From positions 49,751 through 113,750 of the forward strand of contig JAEEKZ010000046.1 in NCBI GenBank assembly GCA_016288635.1: a stretch of DNA of 64,000 bases, written 5' to 3'. The DNA comes from Bacillales bacterium. Lineage in GTDB: Bacteria > Bacillota_I > Bacilli_A > RF39 > UBA660. Of this stretch, positions 44,908-63,872 are shown one piece after another. Position 1 is the stretch's first letter; every line of letters begins with the position of its first letter. The notes below the pieces were generated by a model. The model saw only the letters and a program-made list of their open reading frames with translations. It was not told where the DNA came from and did no database searches. A program made the position numbers and the translations under genes.

Positions 44908-44940
44908 TAAATAAAAAAATATAAGTCTTTCGACTTATAT
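44908..44940 (-). terminator. Rho-independent terminator ending the Tad-like locus
   Basis: Hairpin ATAAGTC-tttc-GACTTAT followed by a T-run on the minus strand. Confidence 0.5.
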
Positions 44941-45953
44941 TAAAATATACTTGGGAACCCACTTTTTACTGAATTACCTAATCTTGAGAAGCCTAAACCA
45001 TTCAAGAATTTAGTTAATTCTTCAACATTTGCATCCTTATCATCCATTGATGGCATATTATAGAAAATATGTACACCTAGATCTTTTTCTAACTCAGAAA
45101 TACCTTTTGCATTAATTGTACTTTGATTAATTACAACTTTCTTTCCAGATAAGTTTTTAAATGTCTCAGGATTCATTTTTATTGCCTTATTTAATTTGAC
45201 AATACTCGTTTCCATTAGATAGACAACATCATTACATAATGATTCATTACCTGATTCATTTAAATCTACGATAATAACATTCATATCTTGCATATTGCCA
45301 ATTGCCGTCTGCAATTCATTAGCATGAACACTAACATATTCTTTCGGATTTTCTCTATCTCTAAAAAAATCAAAATCTGTTTTATCAACTTCTATACATT
45401 TAACTTTATAACATTTATCAAGACATTTCTTTAACATATAAGCTAAAGTTGTAGCTCCAGCTCCATCAGTTAAATTCTTAATTCCCAACACTTTTTGAGC
45501 CATCTCTCCATTTAAATAACTATCAGCAGCTTCCTCTGATTTATCGTTAAATGGATTAATATTTATACCACCAAAATTTTGATATTGTTCAACATCAGCA
45601 TAAGAATTTGGATGATCTATTAAATATGGAATATTATTGACTTCTCTTGTAAAATTATAAATACCCATATTAACTAAATTGCTTAAGAATTCTCTTGAAT
45701 TTGTTTTTCTAGAATCATCTAATAAAAGAATTATCTTACTTGCATCAAAGTTTCTTGAAAGGCCCCTAAGTGTCTCAGAGTTTTCATAGTTCTTTAAAGC
45801 AGTTACATCTATTATCATTTTATTAAAAAATTGTCCATTTCCAAATTTACTAACAATTTCACTAACGGAATAAACTCCATTTAAAACATTATCAGACACA
45901 ATATCCAAACTTGATAATAATTGTTGATATTTATTCGAAATAATTATATTCAT
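44940..45953 (-). CDS. TadZ/CpaE-like pilus-assembly protein with a degenerate ParA/MinD fold
   Basis: N-terminal receiver-like region. Atypical P-loop GIKNLTDGAGATTLAYMLK in place of KGGxGKTT. Positioned as in other tad loci. Confidence 0.45.
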   Translation of the reverse strand: MNIIISNKYQQLLSSLDIVSDNVLNGVYSVSEIVSKFGNGQFFNKMIIDVTALKNYENSETLRGLSRNFDASKIILLLDDSRKTNSREFLSNLVNMGIYNFTREVNNIPYLIDHPNSYADVEQYQNFGGININPFNDKSEEAADSYLNGEMAQKVLGIKNLTDGAGATTLAYMLKKCLDKCYKVKCIEVDKTDFDFFRDRENPKEYVSVHANELQTAIGNMQDMNVIIVDLNESGNESLCNDVVYLMETSIVKLNKAIKMNPETFKNLSGKKVVINQSTINAKGISELEKDLGVHIFYNMPSMDDKDANVEELTKFLNGLGFSRLGNSVKSGFPSIF

Positions 45954-46024: not shown

Positions 46025-46056
46025 TAAAAAACAAGACTTTACAAATCTTGTTCATT
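46025..46056 (-). terminator. Intra-locus terminator or attenuator between the 166-aa gene and the tadZ-like gene
   Basis: Hairpin AACAAGA-ctttacaaa-TCTTGTT followed by a T-run on the minus strand. Confidence 0.4.
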
Positions 46057-46065
46057 TTATTTTAT

Positions 46066-46566
46066 TTATGGATTTTGTACCCACATATCAGGCAAACTTT
46101 GATCGTATAAAATATTTGTTGTTCCATTTACTCTAAATGTGCCAAATAAATTAAAAATTGGCAAATCTATAATATGGAAAAACATAATTCTATAATACAT
46201 TTTAGTTTGTCCTTCTTCTGTAGTTATTGTAATTCTCTTTAGGCAATAATTATATGTAGTAGTATTGTCAGCCAAAACAGGTTTCTCACCATAATTGACA
46301 CCATACCAGCCACCATATTCAGAATCACCGTTATCATGATAGCATGAACCTCTATTACTATAATTCTGCGTTTGAAAATAAGAATCCATTATTCCTTTAG
46401 ATATTTCGGTATAACCATTATATTTTTCAAGAATATTTAAAGCCTCATTTTTAAGTCTATATACCCTTTGATATGACATAGTTAAAGCAAGGAAACTTGA
46501 AAACAATATAATAAATAAAATTACTGCCAAAAATGCATACGCAGACATACTACTTTCTTTTATCAT
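46066..46566 (-). CDS. Small membrane-anchored protein (pseudopilin or TadE/F-like candidate)
   Basis: The MIKESS... N-terminus followed by a hydrophobic helix. 166 aa. Sits in the Tad-like locus. Confidence 0.3.
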   Translation of the reverse strand: MIKESSMSAYAFLAVILFIILFSSFLALTMSYQRVYRLKNEALNILEKYNGYTEISKGIMDSYFQTQNYSNRGSCYHDNGDSEYGGWYGVNYGEKPVLADNTTTYNYCLKRITITTEEGQTKMYYRIMFFHIIDLPIFNLFGTFRVNGTTNILYDQSLPDMWVQNP

Positions 46567-46593
46567 ACTTCAACCTCTTTAACTATTTAGGAC

Positions 46594-47073
46594 CTAACTA
46601 CAATTATAAACAATTGGAGTCTGTCCCGTAACTTTCATACTCCATACAGAAGAAACCATTGGAATATAAAAACTATAAAACAATTGAACCATATAATAGC
46701 AACCATGTTGTTTATCTGGATCAGCTAGTATTTCTTTTCCTTCTCCAAATTCATTGACAGCTTCAACCATTTTAACGCATAGAACTGCAGTTGAATTATC
46801 AACATTAGTTCCTGATCTATCATATCCGTCATAGCCATTACTACATTTACCTGTTGAATAATGATTAGATTCCTTAATTGTTTTTAACAATTCATCGTCT
46901 ATACCATCACTATCACGGAATTTACCACGATAGTTTTTTATATATTGTACAACGTCATTCTTAACGCCAGAAGCATTTGCTCTATTTAACGTTGTACTCA
47001 TTATACCAACAAATAATAGTATAAAAAATACTACTATTAATAATATTGGCCCACCAGTTAAACCTTCCTTCAT
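46594..47073 (-). CDS. Small membrane-anchored protein (pseudopilin or TadE/F-like candidate)
   Basis: The MKEGLTGGPILLIVVFFILLF N-terminus. 159 aa. Sits in the Tad-like locus. Confidence 0.3.
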   Translation of the reverse strand: MKEGLTGGPILLIVVFFILLFVGIMSTTLNRANASGVKNDVVQYIKNYRGKFRDSDGIDDELLKTIKESNHYSTGKCSNGYDGYDRSGTNVDNSTAVLCVKMVEAVNEFGEGKEILADPDKQHGCYYMVQLFYSFYIPMVSSVWSMKVTGQTPIVYNCS

Positions 47074-47081
47074 TAAAACAC

Positions 47082-47324
47082 CTATCCTTTATATGGACAT
47101 TGTATATCATGCTTTTTATAACAACACCAAATCATACCATCAGATACGTCGTTATTTACAACCCCATCACACTTTCTGCCGCAAATTGCTTTATCACAAC
47201 TTGATTGGCTTTCAAAATTTGAGTGCAATGCAGGCCATATAACAGTTAAAAAAAAGGCTATTAGCATGCCAATTAAAATAACAACAACTAACATACTTGA
47301 TAGTTCTTCAGTAGCCTCTTTCAT
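47082..47324 (-). CDS. Cys-rich mini-pilin candidate (non-canonical Flp-like)
   Basis: 80 aa: MKEATEELSS leader, one hydrophobic helix, and a C-terminal 40 aa with 7 Cys. Confidence 0.4.
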   Translation of the reverse strand: MKEATEELSSMLVVVILIGMLIAFFLTVIWPALHSNFESQSSCDKAICGRKCDGVVNNDVSDGMIWCCYKKHDIQCPYKG

Positions 47325-47342
47325 TTTTATATTATCCTTTTA

Positions 47343-47606
47343 TTATCTATCGCCATTTTTATTAGGACATTGAATTTTGTTTTCAGATAATATAGAGTGA
47401 CCTTCTTCGTCTTCCTCATAATACTGACATTCACATGTATTAGAACCCTCAGCACACTCACAGTTTACTGCAGCAGCACAATGTATACCTGCATCAATTT
47501 GTGTTCTTATCATTGGAAGTACAATTGTAGCAAATAATGTTGCAATTAAACCGATTGCAACTACGGCAATAACTGTTGTACTTAATTCACCTGTAGCTTC
47601 TTTCAT
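47343..47606 (-). CDS. Cys-rich mini-pilin candidate (non-canonical Flp-like)
   Basis: 87 aa: MKEATGELST leader, one hydrophobic helix, and a C-terminus with 7 Cys. Paralog of 47082-47324. Confidence 0.4.
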   Translation of the reverse strand: MKEATGELSTTVIAVVAIGLIATLFATIVLPMIRTQIDAGIHCAAAVNCECAEGSNTCECQYYEEDEEGHSILSENKIQCPNKNGDR

Positions 47607-47695
47607 TAATTTATTCCTCCTTTATCTTAATTTTAGTATACAATAATATATTTTTTTTATCAATATTTCTTGACATTTACACTGTAAAGCATTTT

Positions 47696-48487
47696 TTATG
47701 ATGATCCCATCATCTGCATTACAGATAACAACAATAGTATCATTAATCCAACACCGGTTGATACAAGCATTTGCATAGTTTTGTTTTCCATCTTTTCAAG
47801 ACGATTAGCATATCTAGTTTCTCTTGCTTTTTGTTGCAATGACGAAATAGTTCTTGAAAACATTACTAATTGTTCCTGTTTTCTTTCCTGTCTTCCTAAT
47901 GATAATCTATATAACAATCTCATCATACGCATTGAATCTCTAACAGGATATCTTTTAGCAAAGTTCATATATGGGGTAATTGTATCATCACCTGAATTGA
48001 TTTCATCAATCATAATCTTTAAACCATCTTTAAATATCTCTGGTGAGTCAGTAATAGACTTACCTATTGCAACAGGAACAGTATAGTGTTGAATTAATAT
48101 TTCTAATCCTTTCAAGTATTGAGGTAATAATGAGTCAATTTGCATCATATGATCTTTATAATACTTACTTAAATTGATATATCCCATCTTAAATACCCCA
48201 AATCCAATTGCAATTGAGATACAAATTGTTAACACAGATATTTTAGTAATCATTGCTAGCAATGCAAGTGTAGATACTATCATCCAATACTTAATTCTCT
48301 GATTAAAAAGTACGTTTGGATTAACTGATTCTCCATACCTTGCTTTTACATAGAAATCATAATCCTCTTCTTTTAATTTTCTAAAAAGCATTTCATTATC
48401 TGTAACAAGTTGATTTAGGCTTATCTGACCAGATGAAACCATTACAACAAATATTATTACAGTTAATATAAGCATTTCTATTTGCAT
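47696..48487 (-). CDS. tadC: TadC-like inner-membrane platform protein (T2SS-F domain)
   Basis: Polytopic membrane protein with a GspF-like domain, next to the tadB-like gene and tadA. Confidence 0.6.
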   Translation of the reverse strand: MQIEMLILTVIIFVVMVSSGQISLNQLVTDNEMLFRKLKEEDYDFYVKARYGESVNPNVLFNQRIKYWMIVSTLALLAMITKISVLTICISIAIGFGVFKMGYINLSKYYKDHMMQIDSLLPQYLKGLEILIQHYTVPVAIGKSITDSPEIFKDGLKIMIDEINSGDDTITPYMNFAKRYPVRDSMRMMRLLYRLSLGRQERKQEQLVMFSRTISSLQQKARETRYANRLEKMENKTMQMLVSTGVGLMILLLLSVMQMMGSS

Positions 48488-49413
48488 TATTCTACCCCCA
48501 CATCTTCATTAAAGAATGTTTCTCCTTTTAGCATAAAGAAACCATTTATAATTATAATTGCATGTAGAATTACTTGAACATACCATAAATTTAATAACTT
48601 GGTTTGATATGAATCCATGCCAAGCATAAACTGGAATGCAACTGGTAAAAAGAACAAAGCTCCACCAAATGTTAAGAATTTTCTATGAGATGCTTTTCTA
48701 TCCATTTGGTCACGATATACACCTTCAACTAGTGAGTCAATATCCATTGACATGTTTTCCAATGCTTGCCCAGAATCTTTTGCACCTTCTTTTGTAATTT
48801 GCAAAAACAACTGGTGCATATTTTTTACCATATAAAATGGATATCTATTATTGAAATATGCTATAGATTCATCTATCGTACCATTTTGATATGACATATC
48901 AATCATAACTTTAATATCTGATTTAATTGGATCTTCAATAATTCCAGATTCATAAACTCCCTCAAGAGATTTAACAAAACTTTGTGTAGTATTAAACTCC
49001 ATAATGACGTTCGTAGTATATGTTTGAATTTGTTCAAAAATAAAATCAGAATATTTCTTTTTACTTTGTAAATAAGCCAAAAATGGAACGAATGTAATAG
49101 CAATTCCACAATAAATTATTGCCCAAATTATAGAAATAAAATATAAATACCCGATAATGGCAGCAAAGCCACCAATTAAGGTACACTGAACAATATATTG
49201 TTTAGATGTATAATTATATCCAAATTCTTGCATTTTCTTTTTAACTTCAGCAAAAGAATATGCTGCATATTTTTGCTGCAAATTATTAATATTTTTGTTT
49301 AAAGAATCAATTCCATTGCCAGTTTTTGCATTAGAATTATCTTTTGATTTAACAAAAATAATCAAAAGAGCAAGTCCTAACAGAATTGCTAATTCCAAAA
49401 AAGTTTCAGTCAT
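48487..49413 (-). CDS. tadB: TadB-like inner-membrane platform protein (T2SS-F domain)
   Basis: 308-aa membrane protein with a GspF-like architecture. It is translationally coupled (ATGA overlap) to the tadC-like gene. Confidence 0.6.
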   Translation of the reverse strand: MTETFLELAILLGLALLIIFVKSKDNSNAKTGNGIDSLNKNINNLQQKYAAYSFAEVKKKMQEFGYNYTSKQYIVQCTLIGGFAAIIGYLYFISIIWAIIYCGIAITFVPFLAYLQSKKKYSDFIFEQIQTYTTNVIMEFNTTQSFVKSLEGVYESGIIEDPIKSDIKVMIDMSYQNGTIDESIAYFNNRYPFYMVKNMHQLFLQITKEGAKDSGQALENMSMDIDSLVEGVYRDQMDRKASHRKFLTFGGALFFLPVAFQFMLGMDSYQTKLLNLWYVQVILHAIIIINGFFMLKGETFFNEDVGVE

Positions 49414-49430: not shown

Positions 49431-50816
49431 CTAAGCCGTTCCTATCGGTACAGCCGGAATTTGTGGTTGTACTTGCGCATTAATTACTTGTCCTTGAGCT
49501 TGAACTTGAGGCATTTGTTGTGGCGCTTGTGCAGCCTGCATAGTAGGCATTGGAGCTGGTTGTGCAGTCACAACCGGTTGAGGATTTACAACAGGTTGTT
49601 GTGTCTGTACAGGAGCCTGTGCTACCTGCTGAGGAACTGCTTGAGGTTGACTAGGAACAGTTGGTGCAGGTTCAGAAATAGGTTGAACCGGATTTTGTTC
49701 CACAGTTTCTTTAACTTCCTCATTTTCTCCCTCAGGAGGATTATTTGCAATTTCAGCATCAAAAAGATTTGGCTGAAGAATAACCCCTTGGCTTCCCAAA
49801 TAATCATATAAATGATGAGTAGGATTGTGATAACAAATTCTACCATCTAAATTTCTTTTAAAAATTGTATTAACTGCAGGTTCATTATTATCATCAACAT
49901 AAAATTGAGATACTTCTACAATCTCACGTTTAAACTTTCCAATAGTGTTATCCATAAAACCTTTAACATGAACTCCAAGTTGTACATATCTATGAATTGA
50001 GTTTAAGAATTGTTGTACGTCTTGACTTGATTCCATTAAGGAATAAAGACGCATTGGTATATTTGCAGCACTATCTGAGTGAATTGTTGAAATAATATTG
50101 TGACCTGATGAAATAGAGTTACGTACAGCAGTAACAGCTTCAGCGGAACGAACCTCGGAAAGTAGAATCCATTTAGGGTTCTGTCTCATACATGTAACCA
50201 ATACTTCTGTATAACTTGCAATATTATTTGTTTTCATTGCAACTATATCTCTATGTGGATAAATTTTATCCAAGTGAAGTTCTAGTGTATCCTCAATTGT
50301 AATGATCTTTTCATTTTCAGCAGTATTACTTGCCAAGTACTTAACAAGCTCTGTTTTACCTGAACCAGTTTCACCACTAACCATAATATTGCAGTGTCCA
50401 TGTACACAAGTAATTAAAAAGTCTAATACGCTCTCAGAAATATAATCTTCATTTAGTAACTTTTCGCGATTTAATCTTATCTTAGCTGGGGTCTTACGTA
50501 TAACACATGCTATTCCATTTGTCGCAATAGATTCATGTACAAAGTTAAGACGCAACTCCGAACTTTCGGCATCAAGAAATGGTGAAGCCATATTGAAAGT
50601 TTTACCCATTACATTCGAACATTGAAACGCCAATTTTTCAAACAAAGCATTATTTATATCAGGTCTATCAACACGATATATACCTTTATCTAATGTTTTA
50701 AGCCAAACTTGTCCTCCATTTGAATATGAAACGTCGGTAACATTATCATCATTTAGAAATTCCTTTAAAGGCCCAAAATCTAACTGTGAAAATATAGCCT
50801 CATTCATTTTTATCAA
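49431..50816 (-). CDS. tadA: CpaF/TadA secretion ATPase (VirB11/T2SS-E superfamily)
   Basis: Walker A VSGETGSGKTE, Asp box ITIEDTLEL and a His box. The C-terminal 95 aa are Pro/Gln/Ala/Val low complexity. Confidence 0.85.
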   Translation of the reverse strand: MIKMNEAIFSQLDFGPLKEFLNDDNVTDVSYSNGGQVWLKTLDKGIYRVDRPDINNALFEKLAFQCSNVMGKTFNMASPFLDAESSELRLNFVHESIATNGIACVIRKTPAKIRLNREKLLNEDYISESVLDFLITCVHGHCNIMVSGETGSGKTELVKYLASNTAENEKIITIEDTLELHLDKIYPHRDIVAMKTNNIASYTEVLVTCMRQNPKWILLSEVRSAEAVTAVRNSISSGHNIISTIHSDSAANIPMRLYSLMESSQDVQQFLNSIHRYVQLGVHVKGFMDNTIGKFKREIVEVSQFYVDDNNEPAVNTIFKRNLDGRICYHNPTHHLYDYLGSQGVILQPNLFDAEIANNPPEGENEEVKETVEQNPVQPISEPAPTVPSQPQAVPQQVAQAPVQTQQPVVNPQPVVTAQPAPMPTMQAAQAPQQMPQVQAQGQVINAQVQPQIPAVPIGTA

Positions 50817-50830: not shown

Positions 50831-51664
50831 TTATTCATCTGCTACATATGTATAATCAGTATTCATCATTGAAACAGAATCAACATATTGCTTTAATCTA
50901 CTGAATTCTTCAGATTTAATATTTTCCCCTTCATTTTGAAATTTTTCTGAATAACTTGCTCCTCTTGGAATAGGGACTAGTCTAAAACCATATCCGCTTA
51001 GTTTTTCAATTGATTTTAAAACTTCCCAATCCTCTTTAACAACTTTAAACCACAAATGTGTAGGAATATCATATGGATCTTGAGCAAATACATCTTTACC
51101 TTTATTCATTACTTTATAAACTTTTATATGTTTAATAAAATTCTGAAAAACCATTCTATTGTTGCCCGCTCTTGAATTTGCTTCTATTCTTAAATATAAA
51201 TCAATATATGATCCTGGTAAAATAGAATTACCATAAGAAAGCGTATTATTAACGCTAAGATGATAAATATAATAAGTTCCATCAAACTCTTCATCTTCAT
51301 ATAAATTATTACAATTTTCAGAAGTAAGAGCATCTAAATAAACTAAACCATTGTTAGGGATGGAATATCCTTCCTTAATACAGTAATCGCCAGAAACGAT
51401 TTTTCCGTAATCACCTTGCTTAACAACATCCAACTTACTTAAAAATTTTTTACTAACATTTGCACGTCCAATACTTTCTGCTGTAATAATATCTCCTGGA
51501 TATAGCGCTTTCTTTGCAATATAAACTGTTCCTGGATTCTTACCTGTTGATACTAAGTTGTTATATACGACCCATATTACTATAGTAACTACTATAATAA
51601 TAAGCCCTCCAAGAGCTTTTTTATTACTAGCTATTGATCTTAAGTAATTAACGAATTGTGTCAT
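50831..51664 (-). CDS. CpaB/RcpC-like pilus-assembly protein (paralog 1 of 3)
   Basis: N-terminal TM helix, a SAF-like start (VYIAKKALYPGDIITAESI) and the conserved motif YGNSILPGSYIDLYL. Confidence 0.6.
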   Translation of the reverse strand: MTQFVNYLRSIASNKKALGGLIIIVVTIVIWVVYNNLVSTGKNPGTVYIAKKALYPGDIITAESIGRANVSKKFLSKLDVVKQGDYGKIVSGDYCIKEGYSIPNNGLVYLDALTSENCNNLYEDEEFDGTYYIYHLSVNNTLSYGNSILPGSYIDLYLRIEANSRAGNNRMVFQNFIKHIKVYKVMNKGKDVFAQDPYDIPTHLWFKVVKEDWEVLKSIEKLSGYGFRLVPIPRGASYSEKFQNEGENIKSEEFSRLKQYVDSVSMMNTDYTYVADE

Positions 51665-51666
51665 TT

Positions 51667-52452
51667 CTAGTTCCCCACATTACCATTATATCTTTGAATA
51701 ATAGCTGATAATTCATTTGAAACTTTTTTCGTTTCGCCATCATTTTGTCCATATTCAATTCCTCTTGGTACCGGAACTAAAGTCCAATCACCGCCCAATT
51801 CACGAATAAATGTTAATTCTTCGAATAAATCATTTTCAATAGCAAATAACATTAAACTTGGTTTAGTTGGAGTATCTTGAGCAAATACGTTTTTTCCGCT
51901 TCCGTCTCTAACTTCTAAAACCTGGATTTTTTCTACATACTTTTGGAATATCCTTCCGCCAGTATCAGGATTTTTTCCCTTTAAATATAAGTCAATATAA
52001 CTTCCAGGCGTAATAGAATTTCCATATGTAGATTTATCATCAACTGACATATAAAAAATACCATAGTTCTCATCTAATCCTTGCCAAATAGAATTTTGAA
52101 CTTCTTCTTTTTTTACAATTTGATTTCTATCTTTATAAAAAAAGCCAGATTTAGGGACAGTAACATTAACATTTGTATATAAATCATTTAAATTGTCTTT
52201 CGTATAAAAAATATTTAATTTTTTTGCAAGTGTTTCACTAATCTTTACTCTTACAAGCATAGTACTATCAATTTTAGTAACGGGTTTTATTGTTGCTCCT
52301 GCTGCCCAAACTTCAACAGATTTTGTTGACTGGCCAACTCTATAACTATAACCAACCCATAAAACAACAATACCAACAAGAACAGCAAATATTGTAACAG
52401 TATTTTTGTTCATTGCAAATCGCTTTATTCCAGCAATAATACCATTTCCCAT
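51667..52452 (-). CDS. CpaB/RcpC-like pilus-assembly protein (paralog 2 of 3)
   Basis: N-terminal TM helix and the shared motif YGNSITPGSYIDLYLKG. C-terminus (LVPVPRG) matches paralog 1. Confidence 0.6.
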   Translation of the reverse strand: MGNGIIAGIKRFAMNKNTVTIFAVLVGIVVLWVGYSYRVGQSTKSVEVWAAGATIKPVTKIDSTMLVRVKISETLAKKLNIFYTKDNLNDLYTNVNVTVPKSGFFYKDRNQIVKKEEVQNSIWQGLDENYGIFYMSVDDKSTYGNSITPGSYIDLYLKGKNPDTGGRIFQKYVEKIQVLEVRDGSGKNVFAQDTPTKPSLMLFAIENDLFEELTFIRELGGDWTLVPVPRGIEYGQNDGETKKVSNELSAIIQRYNGNVGN

Positions 52453-52469
52453 TTTTAATTCTCCTTTTT

Positions 52470-53249
52470 TTAATCAAGTGTACTTGAGTATAATTTACGC
52501 TTAATAAATTCTTCTGTAACTCTACCATCACAGGTGGTTTCTTCTTTCATATTACCAATTGGAACTGGATAAAAAGTTACTCCAGAAGTTGACCCTACTG
52601 TCAAATATTGATAATAATGATTTGAAACAATAAAATACATTATTGCAGGAGTACCATTATAACCTTTTTGACTAACATCCTTTAAAGATTTATCTCTAAC
52701 AGAATATACCTTTATACTACCAATATAGCACTCTTGCATTAACGTGCCTACTTCATCAACATATTTTGAATATATAGCCACATTTTGACCAGGCTTAATA
52801 GAATTGAAATCAGTATCAATAGAAGTAACATCTAACATATAAATTGTTTGATCATCTTCTACCTCACGCCAAATATCGTCTGGCATTTCCTCTTCACTTA
52901 CAATGACATCTTTATAAAATAAGCCCTTTTTAGGTATTGTAGCTGATATTTTAACATATTTACCAATAAGGTTATTTGCTTCAGATGCCTTGTAAATCAT
53001 CGAATCAGTTCTGCCAGATGCCTTATTTAAAGCTTTAAGATCAGCACTATTCATTTTCATTCTAATAAACATAGTAGCGTCAATTTGCGTTTTACCATTA
53101 ATAGTATCTTTAGCAACTAAAACCTCAACAGGACCAGTCAATATTTGAGTCCTATAATAATACCCGCCAACAATAACCGCTATTCCAGCAATAACGCCAA
53201 ATAACACAATAGTCTTTTTGTTTATAAAAAACTTTAATAACCCTTTCAT
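52470..53249 (-). CDS. CpaB/RcpC-like pilus-assembly protein (paralog 3 of 3, most diverged)
   Basis: Same size and topology as the other two. Motif SIKPGQNVAIYSKY and C-terminal FYPVPIGN. Confidence 0.55.
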   Translation of the reverse strand: MKGLLKFFINKKTIVLFGVIAGIAVIVGGYYYRTQILTGPVEVLVAKDTINGKTQIDATMFIRMKMNSADLKALNKASGRTDSMIYKASEANNLIGKYVKISATIPKKGLFYKDVIVSEEEMPDDIWREVEDDQTIYMLDVTSIDTDFNSIKPGQNVAIYSKYVDEVGTLMQECYIGSIKVYSVRDKSLKDVSQKGYNGTPAIMYFIVSNHYYQYLTVGSTSGVTFYPVPIGNMKEETTCDGRVTEEFIKRKLYSSTLD

Positions 53250-53268: not shown

Positions 53269-53685
53269 TTAATTAGCTTTTACGTATTTACCCGCAATAA
53301 TAGCATCAATATTATTTGTAATGTCGTATACAGCTTTATCTCCGTCAATATTAAAACTTGCTGATTTTGTAGAAATCCTAACACTAACCTTAGGTGGTGC
53401 TTCATAAATTGCTACAAACTCAATAGTATATGTTTGCGTTAAAGATGTTTCTTCAGCCATTCTTCTTATAAAGTTTTCCATAAATTTTTCTTTGTTAATC
53501 TTTAACTCACCATATGTTCTATAGTAACCTTTATCAACAGCATCAACCATAGATGCTTCAGCGATAGAATTTATTAAATATCTATCCTCAGTACTAGTTG
53601 TTGTAATACTTTGAACAAGTAGCATAATAACCACAACAAAAATACCTAATAAAATTAACCAATATCCCCACATTGCATTTCTCAT
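53269..53685 (-). CDS. Small membrane-anchored protein; first gene of the Tad-like operon
   Basis: 138 aa with one N-terminal TM helix. Preceded by an intergenic region containing the terminator of the upstream module. Confidence 0.35.
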   Translation of the reverse strand: MRNAMWGYWLILLGIFVVVIMLLVQSITTTSTEDRYLINSIAEASMVDAVDKGYYRTYGELKINKEKFMENFIRRMAEETSLTQTYTIEFVAIYEAPPKVSVRISTKSASFNIDGDKAVYDITNNIDAIIAGKYVKAN

Positions 53686-53814: not shown

Positions 53815-56800
53815 TTATCTCCAAGAAGGTCCTCCAATTTGGCTCATTTCTCCTTCAACAATCTTATTAATCTTCTCAGCATATTGACCGCAACTACTGC
53901 CGCCACAATCAGGTTGATCAATAAATGTTTGCCAATAGCCATTTTGATTATTAGTTGTACTTCTTGAATTATCATCACTTAATCTACCAGAATAGAAAGT
54001 GAAATTAGGATTATCTCTATACTCATCTAAGAATGAACTATAGCAGAATATCTTTTCGAATTTATAAGTATCATAAGTGTAATCATAACACATTAATGTT
54101 TGATCAGTAAAACTCTTATCATCATTATAATTTCTTATTTTTTGAGCAAGACTTGGCGTCATGACAACTTTCAACACACCAAAGTCTGTTGGAGAACTTA
54201 TACCCTCGATTGAAGGTTGTCCTTCATAAACATCATCAGTTCCCAATTCTTTAGAAACATATATCAATTCTCCGTATGTTTGAATTTCATTAATTGTTAA
54301 TTTTGCTTTATCACTAATGATTTTATATCTATCTCCATATTCCTCAGAAACTGACCATGCATTCCAGTTATATGGAACGTATTCAGATCCAGGAGGACTA
54401 ACTACAGATATAACCTCATTTGGATCATTAGGATTGCCTTGAGGCACACGCAATGGTATTGGCGTAACATCAAGATGGAATTCTTTCTTAGAATAAATAC
54501 AATCTACACATTCGATGTCACAAACAGGGCAGCAATTCTCTCCTTTACATTCCTCTACTGTGGTTTCACATCCGTCTTCATCACATCCAGGAATACATGT
54601 AGGACAATTTCCTTGATTTACTCTATAGTAACATAAATACTCATACTCTGAATCATCATTAAATATTGGTTTCTCAGCACTATTATATTTACCCAAAACA
54701 GTATTTTCATCTTTGTGATTCTTAGCATTTAAAACTCTGCCTTCACCTTCATGATCGAAATATTCTCCAATATCACTGAATGTAAATGTAAATTTATGAA
54801 GTCCGCTCTCAGTTTCTAATTGAACTGGTAAGTCACCAAAATCAACTTTCATTCTTTGATTTTCATTATCTTCAAAATTTGAATCACTTCTTAAAACTAC
54901 AACACCACTTGGATATAAAGTAGCAAATAAGTTTGGAGAAGCATATTCATAATGAACTTCAATATTCTTTTTTGTAAATGTTTTATTACTCATATCTTGA
55001 GGATCAGATTCTAAAACATAATAACCGCTTCCTAAATTCATTTTTACATAATTAACAGATTCTTCTTGGAGAGATGCTGTAACACAACCGTTATTTCTAT
55101 TACCTGAATACTCATCATTTACACATGGATCTGTATTACTTCTCTCATCATCATATTTAATTGTGCTTCCACTTAACTCTTTTTTTATTTTACTTTTATC
55201 AATTTTAGTTGCCTTCAATGTAGTATCAGTTGCTGAACTTGACCAATCATCAGCACCATCAATATTAGAGATTTCTTCTTTTTCACCTCTAACAAGTGGA
55301 ACAGCATCGATACTCGGATCTTTTATCATATCAAAATAACCATAATCATAGTTTTTACTTTCATCATCTTGATATCCATATTTGAAGTTAATATCAGGTT
55401 CCGTATTATACTTCATATCATTATACCAACTAGTACAACGATTAATTTGGTCAATATAATTATTTATATTTTTGAATGCTGTATCTATTGCTGTTTTAGC
55501 GCTATCATATTCAGTCTGATATTCTGAAATCAATTCATTTAATTGCTCAGTAGCAGTTTTTCTTTCAACAATACAATTCTCGTAATCATATACTAAAATA
55601 TCTTTTTTCTTAGTAGCGGGATTATACTCATAATGAAAACCAGATGATTGTGCAGATTGTTCTGTAGCTGTCTCTGTTTCAAAATATTTTTGAACAGTTG
55701 AATCTAATGGCTTTCCTTCTTCGACTATATAACTGATATGATAATCAGTCGTTTTATCTTTATCTATTCGAATTTTATACTCAATTGGTTTTACAGGGCC
55801 TTCGACTTCATATGTAATAGTTTCAATTGAATAAGTTTTAGCTTGTGTACATTCATCAGGATTCTTCTCATTTTCTGGATTATATACACTAGCTGGTCTA
55901 TTTTTCTGTAAATATTGAAGTCTAACATAAGCCAAATTCATTTTATTAATATTATCATTAATAATTTCAATTTCCTTATTTACTTGTTCATTAAATAAAT
56001 CTAGATCTATTTCACGTCTATTATTATCTTCTGCAGAACTTGAATAACATGTTTTCTTGGCATTGTAAGCTGCAGACAATTTAAAGTATCTACCACTATT
56101 AGCATCTTGCATACCCGCAACAGAATAACCATATTTATATTTTTGATCTTCTAATAGGTTTCCATCTTTATCAAATTTACCGAAATCTTCTTTACATAAT
56201 ACTTTGCAATAATTATTTCCATAAACTATCTTTGTTTCTAATGAGTTACCAGCATAGTCTTCTTTTTTCTCAAGAACACATTTAACAATGTTATTATCTT
56301 CAATTTCTTTATATGTTAAATAGTTAACACTCTCTTTATCTTCATTAGATGTTTTAGTTAAATCACCAACTTGCTCACCATCAGAAAATGATATTTCTTC
56401 TGTTTCTTCAGGATTTTCACATGTATTGTGATATGAAACAAATGGTTTACATTTAGAACACTTTGCCTTATCAACTTTAACACCATCGATATAATATTTA
56501 TTATTTATAACACAACAGTCTTCATATTTAGTACCACAACATTTTTCGTTCCATTCATCAGAACCTGACAATACCTCACCAGCAGGTCCATAATATTTGC
56601 CACCAAACAATTCACACTTGTGTTCGCCAACATTAGAACACTCTTCATCATATTGTTGTTTTAAAATAACAGTAAATGGATCAAGGCCATAATAAATTGT
56701 ATTTCCGCTTCCATCGGTTTCAATACGACATTTACATTTATCTCTATAAGCTTCTTCAGATTCTAAAGGGGTTCCATCAGGCCCATAATAAGTGCCATTT

Positions 56801-58245
56801 TCATATTTACACAAATTTTTACTTTCACACTTTTCTTCAAAATCTTCTTTAGACTCTAACACTTCCGCACTAGGTCCATAATATATAGTATTACCATTAC
56901 TATCTTCTTCTTTACGACATCCACATGACTTTTTGTATGCTTCCTCAGAATCAACAGGTTTTCCGTCTACTCCGTAATAAGTATTACCTACTTTTTTACA
57001 TTTGTTTTTACACTGTTCGTTCCATTCATCTTCAGTCTGAAGAATATTATCTGGTGGATTTGGTGGAATTGGTCCATAATATCTAATAGAACCATCTATT
57101 TCTAATTTTACGCAAGAACAATCTTTTTTAAATTCCTCTTCTGTTACTTCTGTACCATCTTTTCCATAATAAATCCCATTTTCATGTTTACAAACATTCT
57201 CAGATTTACATTGTGCAATTTGATCACTTTCAGATCCAACTGTTGTTGGAGGATTTGGTCCATAATATATAGTAGGCTTTCCATCTAAATCAAAAGTTCT
57301 ACATTTACACTTGTCTTTATATTCATCAAATGACACAACATCTTGCTTTGTTTTATTACTATCTAAAACATAATATGTAAGTGGAGTCGTAGAATCATCT
57401 ACATTACAATCACAATAATATATAAATTCTTGCTCTGAATCAGCTGTTTTTCCATCAGGCAAAAACCAATATTTATACTCCGGTTGTTGAGTACAAGCAC
57501 ATTGATCTAAAAATACTTTTTTATCTTCAACAACTTTGCCATCAATGTAATATACAGCAGGTGTTTTTGATTCATCTACGCAACAACCTTCAACATCTTT
57601 ACAATTATTTTCTTCAATAGTTATATCATCACAATCAGCAATATACATTGGTTGTCTATTAGCTATTTTATACATTTGACTTTCTTTATGAAAATAATAT
57701 GGGTGTGCTTCATAAATTTTACAAGATTTGCCTTCTTCTATATTTTTTTCTATTTCACCGCATAGATCATGTGTGCATGAACCAGATCGAGAAAGATCAC
57801 GAATAGCATAATAGTATCTTTTTCCGCCATATTTCTCATCTATCCCCGCTAATTTTTGCAAGCATGCATAATCATCGTTACTGCAATTTGCCGCTTTACG
57901 AGCCGCATACCAGTATTTTCCTAGTGTTTTGCATAGTTCACTATTACATTCAACAGCATTATAGCGATCATTTGCTTTAAAGTGTAATCCGCCTTTCCCA
58001 CAAACAGCATCATGACCAACCAAATTAGTTAATTCGCATTTTTCGCCACGAACCTTAAATCTTGAATAAGTCGCTTGTAAATATTCATTTTCACCAACTT
58101 GTTTTCCTCTACCATATATATCCATAAATCCCAAGTTAGGATTTGAAAGATATTCTTCCGGTTCCGCAAAAACATTGCTAGGTATTAACAATAATAAAAA
58201 TATAAACGATAATAATAAACAATTTATTTTTTTCATATTAATCAC
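53815..58245 (-). CDS. Giant Cys-rich secreted protein (module 2 large subunit), candidate surface adhesin
   Basis: Signal peptide LLLIPSNVFA. 1476 aa with more than 100 Cys. Repeated CxxENGTYYGPDGTxxxSEEAYxxxCxC units, a central conserved domain, and a C-terminus VLKVVMTPSLAQKIRNYN...IGGPSWR shared with 2703-7373 and 59125-63075. Confidence 0.6.
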   Translation of the reverse strand: MINMKKINCLLLSFIFLLLLIPSNVFAEPEEYLSNPNLGFMDIYGRGKQVGENEYLQATYSRFKVRGEKCELTNLVGHDAVCGKGGLHFKANDRYNAVECNSELCKTLGKYWYAARKAANCSNDDYACLQKLAGIDEKYGGKRYYYAIRDLSRSGSCTHDLCGEIEKNIEEGKSCKIYEAHPYYFHKESQMYKIANRQPMYIADCDDITIEENNCKDVEGCCVDESKTPAVYYIDGKVVEDKKVFLDQCACTQQPEYKYWFLPDGKTADSEQEFIYYCDCNVDDSTTPLTYYVLDSNKTKQDVVSFDEYKDKCKCRTFDLDGKPTIYYGPNPPTTVGSESDQIAQCKSENVCKHENGIYYGKDGTEVTEEEFKKDCSCVKLEIDGSIRYYGPIPPNPPDNILQTEDEWNEQCKNKCKKVGNTYYGVDGKPVDSEEAYKKSCGCRKEEDSNGNTIYYGPSAEVLESKEDFEEKCESKNLCKYENGTYYGPDGTPLESEEAYRDKCKCRIETDGSGNTIYYGLDPFTVILKQQYDEECSNVGEHKCELFGGKYYGPAGEVLSGSDEWNEKCCGTKYEDCCVINNKYYIDGVKVDKAKCSKCKPFVSYHNTCENPEETEEISFSDGEQVGDLTKTSNEDKESVNYLTYKEIEDNNIVKCVLEKKEDYAGNSLETKIVYGNNYCKVLCKEDFGKFDKDGNLLEDQKYKYGYSVAGMQDANSGRYFKLSAAYNAKKTCYSSSAEDNNRREIDLDLFNEQVNKEIEIINDNINKMNLAYVRLQYLQKNRPASVYNPENEKNPDECTQAKTYSIETITYEVEGPVKPIEYKIRIDKDKTTDYHISYIVEEGKPLDSTVQKYFETETATEQSAQSSGFHYEYNPATKKKDILVYDYENCIVERKTATEQLNELISEYQTEYDSAKTAIDTAFKNINNYIDQINRCTSWYNDMKYNTEPDINFKYGYQDDESKNYDYGYFDMIKDPSIDAVPLVRGEKEEISNIDGADDWSSSATDTTLKATKIDKSKIKKELSGSTIKYDDERSNTDPCVNDEYSGNRNNGCVTASLQEESVNYVKMNLGSGYYVLESDPQDMSNKTFTKKNIEVHYEYASPNLFATLYPSGVVVLRSDSNFEDNENQRMKVDFGDLPVQLETESGLHKFTFTFSDIGEYFDHEGEGRVLNAKNHKDENTVLGKYNSAEKPIFNDDSEYEYLCYYRVNQGNCPTCIPGCDEDGCETTVEECKGENCCPVCDIECVDCIYSKKEFHLDVTPIPLRVPQGNPNDPNEVISVVSPPGSEYVPYNWNAWSVSEEYGDRYKIISDKAKLTINEIQTYGELIYVSKELGTDDVYEGQPSIEGISSPTDFGVLKVVMTPSLAQKIRNYNDDKSFTDQTLMCYDYTYDTYKFEKIFCYSSFLDEYRDNPNFTFYSGRLSDDNSRSTTNNQNGYWQTFIDQPDCGGSSCGQYAEKINKIVEGEMSQIGGPSWR

Positions 58246-59023
58246 GTTTTTTTCCTTTCATTACAATTACACTAGCCACAATAATAGTCGCCCCGCCAAT
58301 CATAATCATAACTGGCGCTAATAATGAATTCTCTTCTTTTGCATTATTTTTAGTAGGCTTTCCTTCCTTTTCTATTCCCCTTTTTACCTTTTCTTCACGT
58401 ATTTCTGTCGAATAAGATAACAAATCTAGTTTTGTATCAAATGAACTAACAAATGGCTGGCACAAATAATATTCCTCAATATCCTTACACTCTACATAGC
58501 TATAATAAGGATTAGTTCGAGGTAACGTTAAATCAACTACTCTCAAAATTTCGTTGTAACATCCACTTTTTTCTGTACCTACAATCGTAAAAACAAACTT
58601 ATCAGTTTTAAAGGAAGTATCATACCTAAAACTATACTTTCCATTTTTTGTATCTTCATAATTTATCGATGTTGGAATCTCGTTATAAGATGTATTAGCA
58701 TGACTTACATTCACCTTGAAATTTTCGCTTATATTTAATAATTCCACAGTCAAATATTTATCTTCAACAATAGGATAATATTCTCCAGGGCTATCAAAAA
58801 AAGCCTCTTCTTCGCCGCCTTCCCTATATTTATCATAACAGGCATCTTCTACTTCACACACCTCGATGTGCGGCGTATAAATTGCTTTTACGTTGTTTGC
58901 TTCCCTTATCAACGCTCCTTTTTTATCAGCATCACATGTAGCAGCTTTAACTCTAGAACAACCTAGAAACAAAATACTAACTACCAATAAAAAAGATAAT
59001 ATTTTCATAATCTTACTTTTCAT
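58238..59023 (-). CDS. Small type-I membrane protein (module 2 small subunit)
   Basis: Signal peptide, about 210-aa ectodomain with conserved Cys (ATCDADKKGALIREANN ... YLCQPF), a C-terminal TM helix and a basic tail KGKKRD. The stop overlaps the large-gene start by 8 nt. Confidence 0.55.
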   Translation of the reverse strand: MKSKIMKILSFLLVVSILFLGCSRVKAATCDADKKGALIREANNVKAIYTPHIEVCEVEDACYDKYREGGEEEAFFDSPGEYYPIVEDKYLTVELLNISENFKVNVSHANTSYNEIPTSINYEDTKNGKYSFRYDTSFKTDKFVFTIVGTEKSGCYNEILRVVDLTLPRTNPYYSYVECKDIEEYYLCQPFVSSFDTKLDLLSYSTEIREEKVKRGIEKEGKPTKNNAKEENSLLAPVMIMIGGATIIVASVIVMKGKKRD

Positions 59024-59048
59024 TTTCTTGTCCTACCTTACTAAATTA

Positions 59049-59076
59049 ATTTTATCATAATTTTTAATTTATGCAA
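59049..59076 (-). promoter_or_regulatory. Putative promoter of module 2 (TTGCAT, 16-nt spacer, TAAAAT); duplicated upstream of module 3
   Basis: On the minus strand: TTGCAT aaattaaaaattatga TAAAAT, followed by the RBS AAGGTAGGA and ATG. An almost identical 40-nt block lies at 63880-63926. Confidence 0.35.
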
Positions 59077-59091
59077 CTTTATTATAGCAAA

Positions 59092-59124
59092 ATAAAAGAA
59101 AAAACATGAATAAATAATTCATGT
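59092..59124 (-). terminator. Rho-independent terminator after giant gene 3
   Basis: Hairpin ACATGAAT-aaata-ATTCATGT followed by a T-run on the minus strand, placed directly after the stop at 59125. Confidence 0.5.
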
Positions 59125-62100
59125 TTATTTCCAAGCTGGTCCACCTATTTTTTCCATATCTCCATCTTTAATTTTAACTATTGCACTACCATATTTTTCA
59201 CCAAATCTTTCTCCACTCGAAGATGACTGAGAAAGGAATGTTGTCCAATAATCTCCATTTGCAGTATTATCTCTAGCATTTATATCTTGAATTCTGCTAT
59301 GACTAAATGTGAAATTCGGATCATCCACATATTCATCTAAAAATGAGCTGTAGCAGAATATTTTTTCAAAAACGGTTGAACCATATACATAATCGTAACA
59401 AGTTAGAGTTGAATTGGTGTAAGATTTTTCTCTACTATTATAATCCCTGATTTTTTGAGCTAAACTAGGAGTCATAACAACTTTTAATACACCAAAATCC
59501 TTTGAAGAAGAACCAATTCCTTCAATTACAGGACTACCTTCAAAATCATTATTTGTTCCTAAATCTTTGGATACATATATTAATTCACCATACGTTTGAA
59601 TTTCATCAATAGTTAATTTTGCTTTTTCATTTAAAATAATATATTTTTGACCATAATCATCATAGGTTGCCCACGTATTCCAATTCCAATTGTATGGAAC
59701 AAATTCAATACCATTTGGATTAACAACACTTATAACATTATAGGTTGGATTTCCGCCAGGTCCTGGTGATGGTGAAGTACCAGATGGTATGCTTGTTGTA
59801 TGTACCGGTATTGGAGATACATCTAACTGATACTCTTTTGAAGTATAAATACAATCAACACACACAGGATTACAATATTGGCAGCAATCTTCTCCTAGGC
59901 ATTCTTCTTCTGTAGTCGACGTACATTCATCATCATCACACGTCGGTTCACAAGTTTTACAAGTTGTTTGATTTACTCTATAATAGCAAACATAATTATA
60001 ATCTTTTTGCTCTAATGGGAAAATAGAGTATTTTTCATTATATTTACCCAGAACAGTTTCAACATTTGTGTTTTGCTCTGCATCATAAATTCTACCAGTA
60101 GAATCCTCTCTATCAAAGTATTCTCCGATATTACTAAAATTAAATGTGAATTTATGAGGGCCATTTGACGTCTCTATTTGAACAGGTAATCCATTAAATT
60201 CAACATATTCTTCTTTTTCAAAATCACCACCATAATTTTCTCTTAAAATAACTGCTCCACTTGGATACAATGTTGCAAATATATTTGGAGATGTAAACTT
60301 ATATGTTTGTTCTATACTCTTTTTCATATATGTATAATTAACAAAATGCTGGGGGTTGGTTGTTACAGAATGATAGTGTCCTTTCTGAGGAATATCTGTA
60401 ATATAAGTAACAGAATCATCTGTACCATCTTCATCATAACATTTAATTCCGCTTCTATCATCTGAATACTTATCATCAACACAAGGTAGTATTTGAGGAT
60501 TTGTACTTATATACCACTCCCAAGAGCCATCATCATTATATGTTGTCGTTTTAGCCGTCCATTTTTCTTCTTCTGATATTGGAGCCAAATCTTGTCTTTC
60601 CATTTTAGTATATTTGCCTTCATCTAAATCTCTAATTGCATCATAATATGCCCCATCATTATTGCCATTCTCAGCATAACCATATTTATACGTAATTATA
60701 GATTCCGGTTTATAATTAAATTCGTTTGGCCAATTAATCGTACAATCCTCTATTTCTTGAATATAAGCTTGAATCTGCTTGAGAGCGTTCTCAATATTCC
60801 TATTACTAGTATCATAAGTGGATTGTATATCAGCAACATAATCTGTATAATCCTCATATGCATCGTAATTACTGCCATAACAATCTAATGTATCTTGACA
60901 TGGATAAGATTCCTCTCCAATATAATTCCATTGAGCATCATATTTAGGTCTCCAACAAGTAGTATCATAAGGTTTAGAATCAAATGTATACGTAGTATCA
61001 GTCCACGATGTTGTTGGAGAAGGAGTTAATTCACCCTTTTCTTCCACTTTAAAACTTAAATGATGTTCAGTTGATGTATCATTATCCAAACTAATTTCAT
61101 ATTTAGGATATTTGTATTTAGAAAGATTAGCTATAGCGGACGCAGTATAATAATACGAATTAATTATATAATCCTTTGGAGAACACAAATCTGTCCCATT
61201 CGACAACTCATTCTGATCGTGTTTAAACTCTTCAGTTTTTAACCACGTTAACGTTGCTAGCGCATCATTCATTGTATTAATATTATCGTTAATTATTTTA
61301 ACTTGGGTATATACATCTTCGTTAAATTTATCCAAATTAATTTCCCTTGTTTCTTTATCATCATCATTAGAAGTTGTATAACAAGTTCTCTTGGATGTAA
61401 ATTCTGCATTTAATCTAAAATATCTGCCACTATTAGCTTCTTGCATTCCTGATACAGAATATCCAAAAGGAAAAGGATCTGATCTCAATGTTCCATCATC
61501 CTCAAATTTTCCGACATCGTCTTTACAGAATACCTTACAATATCTATTATTAGGATCTATTACCTTAATATTTTGTAATGTATTCTCTGCATAATCGGTT
61601 TGTTTTGTAAGAACACATTTTATAATATCATCGTCATCTACTTCTTTATAAGTAATAAAGTTAATGCTTTCTTTATTTTCGAATTTTGTTTTTAATAACT
61701 CTCCCTTAGTTTCTCCACCATCATAACCTTCTATATCACACATTGGATCTAAATCTTTAAGCTGACATGAAGAATGGTATGAAACGGCTGGTTCACATGA
61801 AAGACACTTCTTTTTATCATCTACTTTTGTGCCCTCAGGGTCTAAATAATACTGACCATCCAAAACACAACATTTATCATAATGTTCTTCACAACAATTA
61901 GCAATATATGTTGCTATATTTACTGGAGACCTATTCCAATAATAAGTATTTCCGCTTTTACAGCATCCATCCTGATCGCATGGACAAGATTTTTTATATT
62001 CGGTTTCGCCTACTTCTCCGCCACCAACATAAAAATGGCCTTCATATTTACAACAAGTAGTTGTAGACTTACACGGGTTATTACATTTTAAATTAAAATC

Positions 62101-63075: not shown

Positions 63076-63872
63076 CTGTATTTCCTTTTAAGAATAATTA
63101 TGCCAGCGCCAATCAACCCCATTCCGCAAGCTGTAGCGGCAAATATATAAACATATTCGATTTTATTATCTTTATTTTTATTTTCACTATTGCTTTTATT
63201 ATTGATTCTTGTCGTTTTTTCATTTTCAACCATTTGCCACACTTCAGCTGCATTTAAATGACTAACATCAGTATTAATAAATGGCTGACACAAAAAATAG
63301 TCTTCTAATCCCTCACACCTACTAACTTGATAAAATTCATTACCTTTAGGATGAGTAAGAGTTAACTCTCTAATATGTACTCCTTCACATCCTGATTCAG
63401 CGGAACCATATATATTAATACTAAACTTTCCAACTTTATCTATAGCATCCCATTCAAAAGAATATTTATTATTTTTAAAATCACTATATACTATTTTTTG
63501 GGAATATGCAGACGATCTATTATGTTTAACTACAGCATAAAAATTTTGGGAAACATTATAAATATCTATTTCAAGATATAAATCATTAACATATGGTAAA
63601 TATCCCTCTTCTCCAGATGAAGTTGTACCATATGGAGCATCGCCATGCATTTCACCATCTTCACCTAAAAAACTATTTATTGCATCTTCATGGCATTTTT
63701 CTCCTGGATAACATATTTCAACATGAGGAACATATGAAACCCTAATATTTTGTGCTTCTCTAATCAAAGCCGCTTTTTCATCAGCAGTACATTCTGCATA
63801 TACATTTGTTGCAAACAAAGCAACAAAAACAGTTAATATAATTAATAAAAATTTCTTAGATAATTTAGTCAT
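63072..63872 (-). CDS. Small type-I membrane protein (module 3 small subunit)
   Basis: Signal peptide, ectodomain with ECTADEKAALIREAQN ... YFLCQPF, a C-terminal TM helix and a KRKYR tail. The stop overlaps the large-gene start (ATGA). Confidence 0.55.
   Translation of the reverse strand: MTKLSKKFLLIILTVFVALFATNVYAECTADEKAALIREAQNIRVSYVPHVEICYPGEKCHEDAINSFLGEDGEMHGDAPYGTTSSGEEGYLPYVNDLYLEIDIYNVSQNFYAVVKHNRSSAYSQKIVYSDFKNNKYSFEWDAIDKVGKFSINIYGSAESGCEGVHIRELTLTHPKGNEFYQVSRCEGLEDYFLCQPFINTDVSHLNAAEVWQMVENEKTTRINNKSNSENKNKDNKIEYVYIFAATACGMGLIGAGIIILKRKYR

Follow-up and report, generated by a model that had tools for sequence, protein, structure and literature searches.

The Flp pilins of Tad (type IVc) pili, such as Flp1 of Aggregatibacter and PilA of Caulobacter, are small proteins encoded beside genes in the TadB and TadC positions and a CpaF/TadA-type ATPase gene, and are followed by two larger proteins in the TadE/F positions. 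Their short polar leader ends in Gly and precedes a hydrophobic helix. In Gram-positive bacteria there are divergent Tad-like loci whose pilins lack Tyr+6 ('Flp-like') or that show no recognisable prepilin motif ('no Flp'), and the loci 'without recognisable pilins' have been a loose end since 2011 (Imam et al. 2011, PMC3244431). Here we describe two adjacent small genes of a Bacillales bacterium (GTDB lineage Bacillota_I; Bacilli_A; RF39; UBA660; assembly GCA_016288635.1) that lie within 64,000 nucleotides of contig JAEEKZ010000046.1; this whole stretch of analysed DNA is referred to as the window. The two genes share the above features of size, neighbourhood and leader with the Flp pilins, and they belong to a family in which the start MKEATG predominates and which provides a concrete candidate for the pilins of such loci. 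We propose that they encode the subunits of a filament built by a strongly diverged Tad-like (type IVc-like) machine of monoderms, and the mechanism given below is, as a whole, the best explanation with a probability of roughly 0.6. That both genes encode pilin subunits is in itself very likely.

Despite these parallels the MKEATG family lacks the G/xxxxEY motif of Flp pilins and has no match to the Pfam model Flp_Fap. Its leader is only 6 amino acids (aa) long and nearly invariant, with Glu at +1, and no tadV is present within its loci. The structure predicted by AlphaFold2 (AF2) contains a disulfide-rich beta head, unlike Tad pilins, which have no beta domain (PMC11067988). The system resembles a monoderm Tad/type IVc pilus, yet it escapes most sequence-based tests of membership. 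The loci of Imam et al. are those of Clostridia with tadV, whereas the loci considered here are found in uncultured Bacilli, have no tadV nearby and contain a pilin family with a defined leader (PMC3244431).

DUF5411, which is also encoded in these loci, has been placed in a predicted type IV pilus or secretion operon of gut Clostridia, including Roseburia, Ruminococcus and Eubacterium (Miller et al. 2022, PMC9523054). Likened by gene content, that operon and the MKEATG loci both combine a CpaF-type ATPase, DUF5411 and otherwise unannotated genes in Gram-positive gut bacteria. However, PilC/GspF is recognisable and the pilins are undefined in the clostridial operon, while in the MKEATG loci PilC/GspF is unrecognisable. 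The uncultured gut group TANB77 (class Clostridia) has a Tad-like locus in which CpaB, TadZ, TadA and TadB/C were recognised mainly by structure (PMC11680825). Members of this group are, like the MKEATG hosts, gut Firmicutes with a reduced genome and with pilin-like genes that are unrecognisable by sequence. Their pilin-like proteins are longer, at 143–237 aa, TadB and TadC form a single fusion protein, and neither an MKEATG leader nor a head rich in Cys is reported for them (PMC11680825). A cultured member of the Erysipelotrichales provides a contrast case, having a conventional tad locus with tadV first and pilins without a beta domain (PMC12786226).

The two genes are adjacent open reading frames (ORFs) in the pilin position of the locus, as had been stated in a preliminary description of this DNA made from the letters of the sequence:

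47343..47606, minus strand: pilin1, 87 aa, likely major subunit; 6 Cys in the head.
47082..47324, minus strand: pilin2, 80 aa, paralogue of pilin1; Glu6; C-terminal motif C-P-Y-K-G.
47635..47663, minus strand: promoter-like sequence TTGATA-17-TATACT in the 89-bp gap upstream of pilin1; consensus match only.

Pilin1 and pilin2 are paralogues by BLASTP (E 4e-12). Both open with MKEAT(G/E)ELS, and their N-termini (MKEATGELSTTVIAVVAIG in the 87-aa and MKEATEELSSMLVVVILIG in the 80-aa protein) are nearly identical, as first described. The 87-aa protein is likely to be the major pilin, and the 80-aa protein would be a second or minor one. Pilin1 has a strong ribosome binding site with the Shine-Dalgarno sequence AAAGGAGGA. 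Promoter-like sites in the region do not exceed the number found in shuffled sequences; the G+C content of the window is 28.9%. The preliminary description had pointed out that both the Flp motif G/xxxxEY and the type IV motif G/FTLIE are absent from the two proteins, and this proved correct. Pfam and NCBIfam yielded no family at E≤1 for either pilin, save two chance-level NCBIfam matches (E~0.2), and no pilin model of either collection was matched. PF07963 (N_methyl) matches neither protein. The acidic residue is found at +1 instead of +5. Searches of PDB sequences, including a profile search, gave zero matches. A motif search located the MKEATG-type start in no paper of the literature collection searched. 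A canonical Flp gene elsewhere in the window, which would have made another protein the true pilin, was also considered and is rejected, as the 64-kb window holds no ORF with a G/xxxxEY signal.

A word-indexed search retrieved 85 homologues of the pilins, every one annotated 'hypothetical' (best E 1e-47), and an exhaustive profile search retrieved 628 clusters at 50% identity with E≤1e-3 (212 with E≤1e-10). By scanning one genome per GTDB species at least 354 confirmed stretches were obtained; the locus statistics given throughout come from 80 distinct related loci out of those stretches. Across the 80 loci the pilin genes constantly follow two genes for polytopic proteins. Compared with two sister species, dN/dS is 0.14–0.23 for pilin1 and 0.17–0.18 for pilin2, and within pilin1 the head evolves faster (pN 0.22–0.30) than the first 40 residues (pN 0.03–0.12). 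Among 126 genes starting with MKEATGEL, the residues Ala4, Thr5 and Gly6 each use all four codons, and Leu8 uses four. Because synonymous codons vary, the invariance of the start must be selected at the protein level. A conserved RNA or translation signal was considered as well and is rejected, synonymous sites varying freely. The homologues, the 50% clusters, the gene order, the dN/dS values and the residues fixed despite codon variation together argue that the pilin genes are neither chance nor spurious ORFs.

The leader of pilin1 is strictly conserved, with MKEATGEL[NS] and Gly6 in 81 of 81 loci. Pilin2 most commonly starts with MKEATGELN (44/74), and its position 6 is occupied by Gly in 65 of 74 loci, by Ser in 5, and by Ala, Glu, Lys and Leu in one each; six of the nine replacements are the small residues Ser or Ala. 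The contrast between Gly in one protein and Glu in the other, noted earlier, therefore exists in the window pair but not family-wide, and Glu6 of pilin2 is a stable peculiarity of the window's clade. Of 226 representatives of the family, about 220 have a leader of 6 residues, and in 185 its sequence is MKEATG. About 215 carry Gly immediately before the helix, and this position is followed by Glu in about 219 and by Asp in 3. None of the 226 has E+5/Y+6, and Gly6 is followed by E-L-[SN]-x-T-V. The hydrophobic stretch after Gly6 runs to Pro31, which is invariant across the family.

A similar start had been remarked in the two downstream TadE/F-like genes of the window (MKEGLTGG and MIKESSMS). 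This is confirmed, and family-wide it applies to five proteins per locus, in all of which the template M-[KR]-E-[AS]-x-(x)-G precedes a stretch of about 22 hydrophobic residues. Orthologues of the first downstream protein (minor1, ~160 aa) start with M[KR]E[AS]IG and then G-T-W, with Gly at position 6 in 70 and Ser in 9 of 79. Those of the second (minor2, ~160 aa) start with M[RK][EQ][SA]IG and then S-T-W, position 6 being Gly in 47, Ser in 8, Glu in 5 and Arg in 2 of 62. In DUF5411 orthologues the start is MKESYWG|YWLI, where Gly is residue 7; among the listed orthologues, five have Ala and one has Val instead. Class III signals consist of a short leader that ends in Gly, Ala or Ser directly before about 20 hydrophobic residues, and the 6-aa leader of the pilin family, with Gly at -1 and a hydrophobic stretch after it, agrees with this. 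A signal common to several subunits is typical of proteins that a single prepilin peptidase processes. Because five proteins have this N-terminal signal in common, with its small end residue and following hydrophobic helix, we regard it as a class III (prepilin) signal. In two variants 8–9 residues are inserted before the Gly while the junction is kept (MNEATKSPSMGAIG|ELNTTV in P0161 and MNEATKNSGMTVATG|QLNTTV in L032), which fits a disposable leader. By analogy, the leader is rather likely to be a class III variant that is cut between Gly6 and Glu7. The preliminary description had raised a new leader class as one option. As a sequence variant of class III, with a 6-aa leader, Gly at -1, an acidic +1 and no E+5/Y+6, this option is reasonable; the other option raised there, an unprocessed pilin-like subunit, is less likely. 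Judging from the common leader template, DUF5411 may be a minor-pilin family.

Residues 7–11 of pilin1 read E-L-N-x-T in 64 of 81 loci, formally the bacterial N-glycosylation sequon D/E-x-N-x-S/T. The match is probably coincidental, because this segment should be buried.

The Epd pilins of Methanococcus maripaludis, which are processed by EppA, are 67–76 aa long and have class III signals of 5–13 aa ending in Gly with a conserved Gln at +1, and pilins without Glu+5 occur in Sulfolobus and Haloferax (PMC3875500). Likened by features only, the Epd pilins share with the MKEATG family a very small size, a class III signal ending in Gly and a polar +1, yet they keep Glu+5 and are glycosylated, whereas the MKEATG pilins have Glu at +1 and no acidic residue at +5. 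Type IVa pilins such as Pseudomonas PilA have a 6-residue leader ending in Gly, a helix-breaking Pro about 22–25 residues into the mature protein, an alpha-1 helix with a beta sheet, and a disulfide that fastens the C-terminus. The MKEATG family is similar to these in leader length, in the Gly and in the Pro; its predicted helix and sheet and its supposed disulfide to the C-terminal Cys may be further parallels. However, it lacks F-T-L-I-E and an N_methyl match, its head is far smaller, and its ATPase is of the TadA rather than the PilB type.

The AF2 model obtained with the pilin1 family alignment (predicted local distance difference test, pLDDT, 77.5) has a helix at residues 5–44 and strands at 47–51, 57–65 and 71–81. 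Seven Cys had been reported for each protein, but the count is six: residues 43, 49, 51, 58, 60 and 80 in the 87-aa protein, and residues 43, 48, 52, 67, 68 and 76 in the 80-aa protein, all of them past residue 42. The number of ectodomain Cys is even in 97.8% of 366 family members (4 in 153 and 6 in 197), most have their first Cys at position 43, and C-x-C-x4-6-C-x-C and like patterns recur. The head is probably held by two or three disulfides. The Cys patterns fit a ladder of disulfides between strands and one further bond that joins the end of the helix to the C-terminus, if the pairing is as we suppose, in pilin1 C49-C60, C51-C58 and C43-C80. Pilin2 ends in C-x-[WYF]-K-G (CPYKG in the window), with exactly four residues past the last Cys in 70 of 73 loci.

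The proposed mechanism can be outlined as follows. Each pilin would consist of the 6-residue leader M-K-E-A-T-G, a hydrophobic helix of about 25 residues and a small extracellular head. The leader would be removed after Gly6, most likely by a prepilin-type peptidase encoded outside the locus. The mature pilin (ELSTTV...) would then begin with a Glu that might neutralise the amine of its own N-terminus or else form pyroglutamate by cyclisation, and this N-terminal Glu would replace the usual Glu+5. The three-stranded head would be stapled by two or three disulfides, among them a CxC...CxC hairpin ladder and a bond from Cys43 to the C-terminal Cys. Polymerisation of the subunits would be carried out by the CpaF-like ATPase and two polytopic proteins, while the two ~160-aa proteins and DUF5411, which have the common leader template, would act as minor or priming pilins.

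The gene order of the system is fixed across the loci: DUF5411, one to three CpaB-like proteins, the T2SSE ATPase, polytopic proteins of ~300 and then ~263 aa, pilin1, pilin2, two ~160-aa proteins with a single transmembrane (TM) segment, and a ~337-aa protein. Relatives of a 261/266-aa Cys-rich protein (p261/p266) and of a Cys-rich giant precede DUF5411 in many related loci. Including the giants, the window locus spans 44940–63872 on the minus strand and comprises, besides the pilin genes:

53815..63872, minus strand: two Cys-rich secreted giants of 1476 and 1316 aa, 4.4% Cys, each after a 261/266-aa Cys-rich protein.
53269..53685, minus strand: DUF5411 protein, 138 aa, Pfam PF17424 (5e-51); starts with MRNAMWG, then YWLILLGIFVVV.
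50831..53249, minus strand: three CpaB/RcpC-like paralogues of 277, 261 and 259 aa, one N-terminal TM segment each; position conserved.
49431..50816, minus strand: TadA/CpaF-type secretion ATPase, 461 aa, Pfam T2SSE (1.2e-27).
48487..49413, minus strand: 308-aa polytopic protein in the TadB position; putative platform protein from position and topology.
47696..48487, minus strand: 263-aa polytopic protein in the TadC position; putative platform protein from position and topology.
46594..47073, minus strand: minor-pilin-like protein 1, 159 aa; MKEGLTGG, then hydrophobic helix.
46066..46566, minus strand: minor-pilin-like protein 2, 166 aa; MIKESSMSAYAF, then hydrophobic helix.
44940..45953, minus strand: 337-aa protein in the TadZ/CpaE position, a putative assignment; found in 79 loci.

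Scans of all locus proteins with Pfam and NCBIfam recognised only the ATPase, DUF5411 and, weakly, the CpaB-like proteins. The ATPase is the sole firmly assigned part of the machine. Among solved structures it is closest to CpaF (5.9e-18), followed by archaeal FlaI, to which Tad ATPases are close, and by VirB11; the NCBIfam models of the VirB11/TadA family score under their cut-offs. The C-terminal tail of the ATPase (49434–49763, minus strand), of about 110 residues, is rich in Pro, Gln, Val and Ala, and solved CpaF chains align only to residues 8–260. RcpC and TIGR03177 match two of the three CpaB-like paralogues below the curated cut-offs.

For the polytopic proteins, T2SSF was not found by Pfam in the 40 family members scanned, nor by a PDB profile search, and hhalign of the two polytopic families showed no mutual relationship. 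The AF2 model of the 308-aa protein is all-helical but of low confidence (pLDDT 58), and Foldseek gave no match for it. The protein in the TadB position has at least 7401 homologous clusters at 90% identity, none carrying a Pfam domain, and the system must therefore be abundant but unannotated. The 337-aa protein had no match in Pfam, NCBIfam and PDB (profile) searches; it contains an invariant T-x-x-A-G-x-x-T-L block, and a likeness to a deviant Walker A was seen by eye only. Pfam TadE matched neither the 159-aa nor the 166-aa protein, and tblastn of DUF5411 against plasmids gave zero matches. In L003 (14–277), a short metagenome contig of the same species, extra 87-aa and 248-aa genes are located upstream of pilin1 in place of the 263-aa gene; this may be strain variation or misassembly.

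A cysteine theme shared between the pilins and the giants had also been suggested. It holds only as a compositional trait of the exported proteins of the locus: Cys makes up 6.9–7.5% of the pilins and 4.4% of the giants, compared with 0.90% for the remainder of the window. A functional link between the giants and the pilus system is at present only supposed. A third Cys-rich giant (2703–7373, minus strand; 1556 aa, 3.6% Cys, no Pfam match) lies 40 kb from the locus and adjoins an ftsQ-like gene.

Several observations speak against the mechanism proposed above. An A24 peptidase motif (G-x-[GA]-D-x-[KR] in a polytopic ORF) is found neither in the 64-kb window, nor in the 10 kb beyond its end (L086), nor in the 80 loci with 10-kb flanks. 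With no A24 peptidase near any locus, cleavage is therefore something that we infer. In the window's clade, two sister species included, pilin2 has Glu6, minor1 starts with MKEGLT(G/A)GP and minor2 with MIKESSMS, so that Gly6 is limited to the major pilin there, and Glu at position 6 recurs in 5 minor2 orthologues. The residues K2, E3, A4 and T5 are almost invariant, unlike those of ordinary prepilin leaders, and the N-terminus could be retained. In addition, the pilins have no sequence or structure match to any known pilin, Foldseek of the pilin model against the PDB giving no significant match, and the TadB/TadC, TadZ and TadE/F assignments are ones we infer from position and topology.

Two findings bear on whether the genome encodes a prepilin peptidase. 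A 123-aa ORF outside the Tad-like locus (10702..11073, minus strand) has a canonical class III start, MNKKG|STILEMLIVIV with Glu+5, and neighbours a 307-aa ORF without a Pfam match. About 5 kb past the high end of the window, L086 encodes a 232-aa PF07963 protein (4464–5162) beside a DUF87/HerA-type ATPase and a Big_2 protein, just before efp; this cluster may be a comG-like remnant or variant. Given these two proteins, a prepilin peptidase is probably encoded elsewhere in the genome. Among the clustered polytopic ORFs of the loci the only recurrent neighbours are CPBP and an Lgt-like cluster, the latter named by eye, and the upstream regions of split loci contain no recurrent peptidase candidate.

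The alternative that survives best, though we consider it unlikely, is that the leader is not cleaved at all. Met-Lys-Glu-Ala-Thr-Gly-Glu would then be kept, and the amine and Lys2, set against Glu3 and Glu7, would make contacts in the filament core or form a docking site for the platform. This would account for the near invariance of K2, E3, A4, T5 and E7 where typical prepilin leaders vary, for the lack of a peptidase gene in or near all 80 loci, and for the occurrence, in the window's clade, of Glu, Thr or Ser in place of Gly6 in three of the four subunits. However, a Gly6 fixed in 81 of 81 pilin1 sequences, and replaced in pilin2 by Ser or Ala in six of nine cases, shows the conservation that one would expect at the -1 position of a cleavage site. 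The insertions before the Gly that are tolerated in two variants also disagree with a retained N-terminus, and we know of no precedent for four charged groups buried in a filament core.

A second alternative keeps cleavage but assigns it to a non-A24 enzyme that reads M-K-E-A-x-G, for example an Rce1-like glutamic protease of the CPBP type; such an enzyme could instead trim the C-x-[WYF]-K-G tail of pilin2. In 13 of the 14 loci having at least 1 kb of upstream sequence, a CPBP gene (PF02517, 4.5e-14) lies divergently next to the gene that opens the system. It is found within 10 kb in 25 of 80 loci (for example L067 5719–6384, L079 6307–7032 and L020 1074–1757) and directly upstream of pilin1 in two split loci. 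The conserved leader residues on the P side would suggest extended recognition, and the nearly constant distance of four residues from the last Cys to the end of pilin2 (70 of 73 loci) also speaks for this alternative. Yet no CPBP gene was found near the locus of the window organism, 55 of 80 loci also lack an adjacent one, and the adjacency may be inherited synteny of related species. CPBP proteins are common in Firmicutes, where they are usually tied to bacteriocin immunity or peptide processing, and CAAX motifs have three residues past the Cys, whereas pilin2 has four. We therefore consider this alternative highly improbable. Taken more broadly, a type IV filament system without any A24 peptidase, in which the M-K-E-A-x-G tag of five subunits is read by another intramembrane protease or built into the filament, is also improbable, though less so than the CPBP alternative. 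If true, the universal Gly-1/Glu+5 logic would give way to an N-terminal Glu or to an N-terminus with balanced charges.

Although pilus and pseudopilus cannot be told apart from sequence, a short pseudopilus that acts like those of type II secretion or Com systems, as a piston or conduit through the wall exporting or displaying the Cys-rich giants, is very doubtful: signal-peptide giants and p261/p266 directly upstream of the machinery in many loci, several minor-pilin-like components, and the classing of the clostridial DUF5411 operon as secretion-related by Miller et al. (PMC9523054) would agree with it, but the giants are poorly conserved and missing from split loci, in which the pilin genes form a sub-operon of their own, and the pilin1 head evolves fast, as expected of an exposed major pilin.

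If the two genes are the pilins of a Tad-like machine with a cleaved leader, the mechanism is of a familiar kind, save for the case of an unusual peptidase. The family would widen the range of class III signals to ones with an acidic +1, no Glu+5 and a near-invariant leader, and it would provide a description of a minimal pilin head stapled by disulfides in anaerobic Firmicutes. As a simple signature, MKEATG, then E-L-[NS], then Pro31 can be used to annotate this system, which abounds in metagenomes of gut and rumen but is missed by Pfam and NCBIfam. The family also makes five gene families without annotation accessible, and for DUF5411 it suggests a role.

The hosts of the examined loci are all uncultured, known as metagenome-assembled genomes (MAGs) from gut and rumen that are labelled Bacilli, Tenericutes, Mollicutes, Mycoplasma sp. 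or Erysipelotrichaceae. Contigs of relatives measuring 1.0–1.26 Mb suggest that the host genomes are small, and these small-genome uncultured Bacilli probably depend on attachment to hosts or other cells. Some third party annotation (TPA) MAG records with a Bacilli-type locus, for example L006, L013 and L042, are labelled Muribaculaceae, Methanobacteriaceae or Merdimonas, which is probably placeholder or wrong taxonomy.

Elsewhere in the window, the region 27674–36196 (minus strand) encodes a run of proteins that each carry one TM segment at the N-terminus, together with two S26/S24 signal-peptidase-like ORFs (34204–34938 and 27674–28303). A 239-aa ORF at 13513–14232 (minus strand) has an N-terminus, …VVGATFAYFSA, that by eye resembles the signals of SipW-dependent TasA/camelysin proteins. 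This run and this ORF may belong to a second fibre or secretion cluster.

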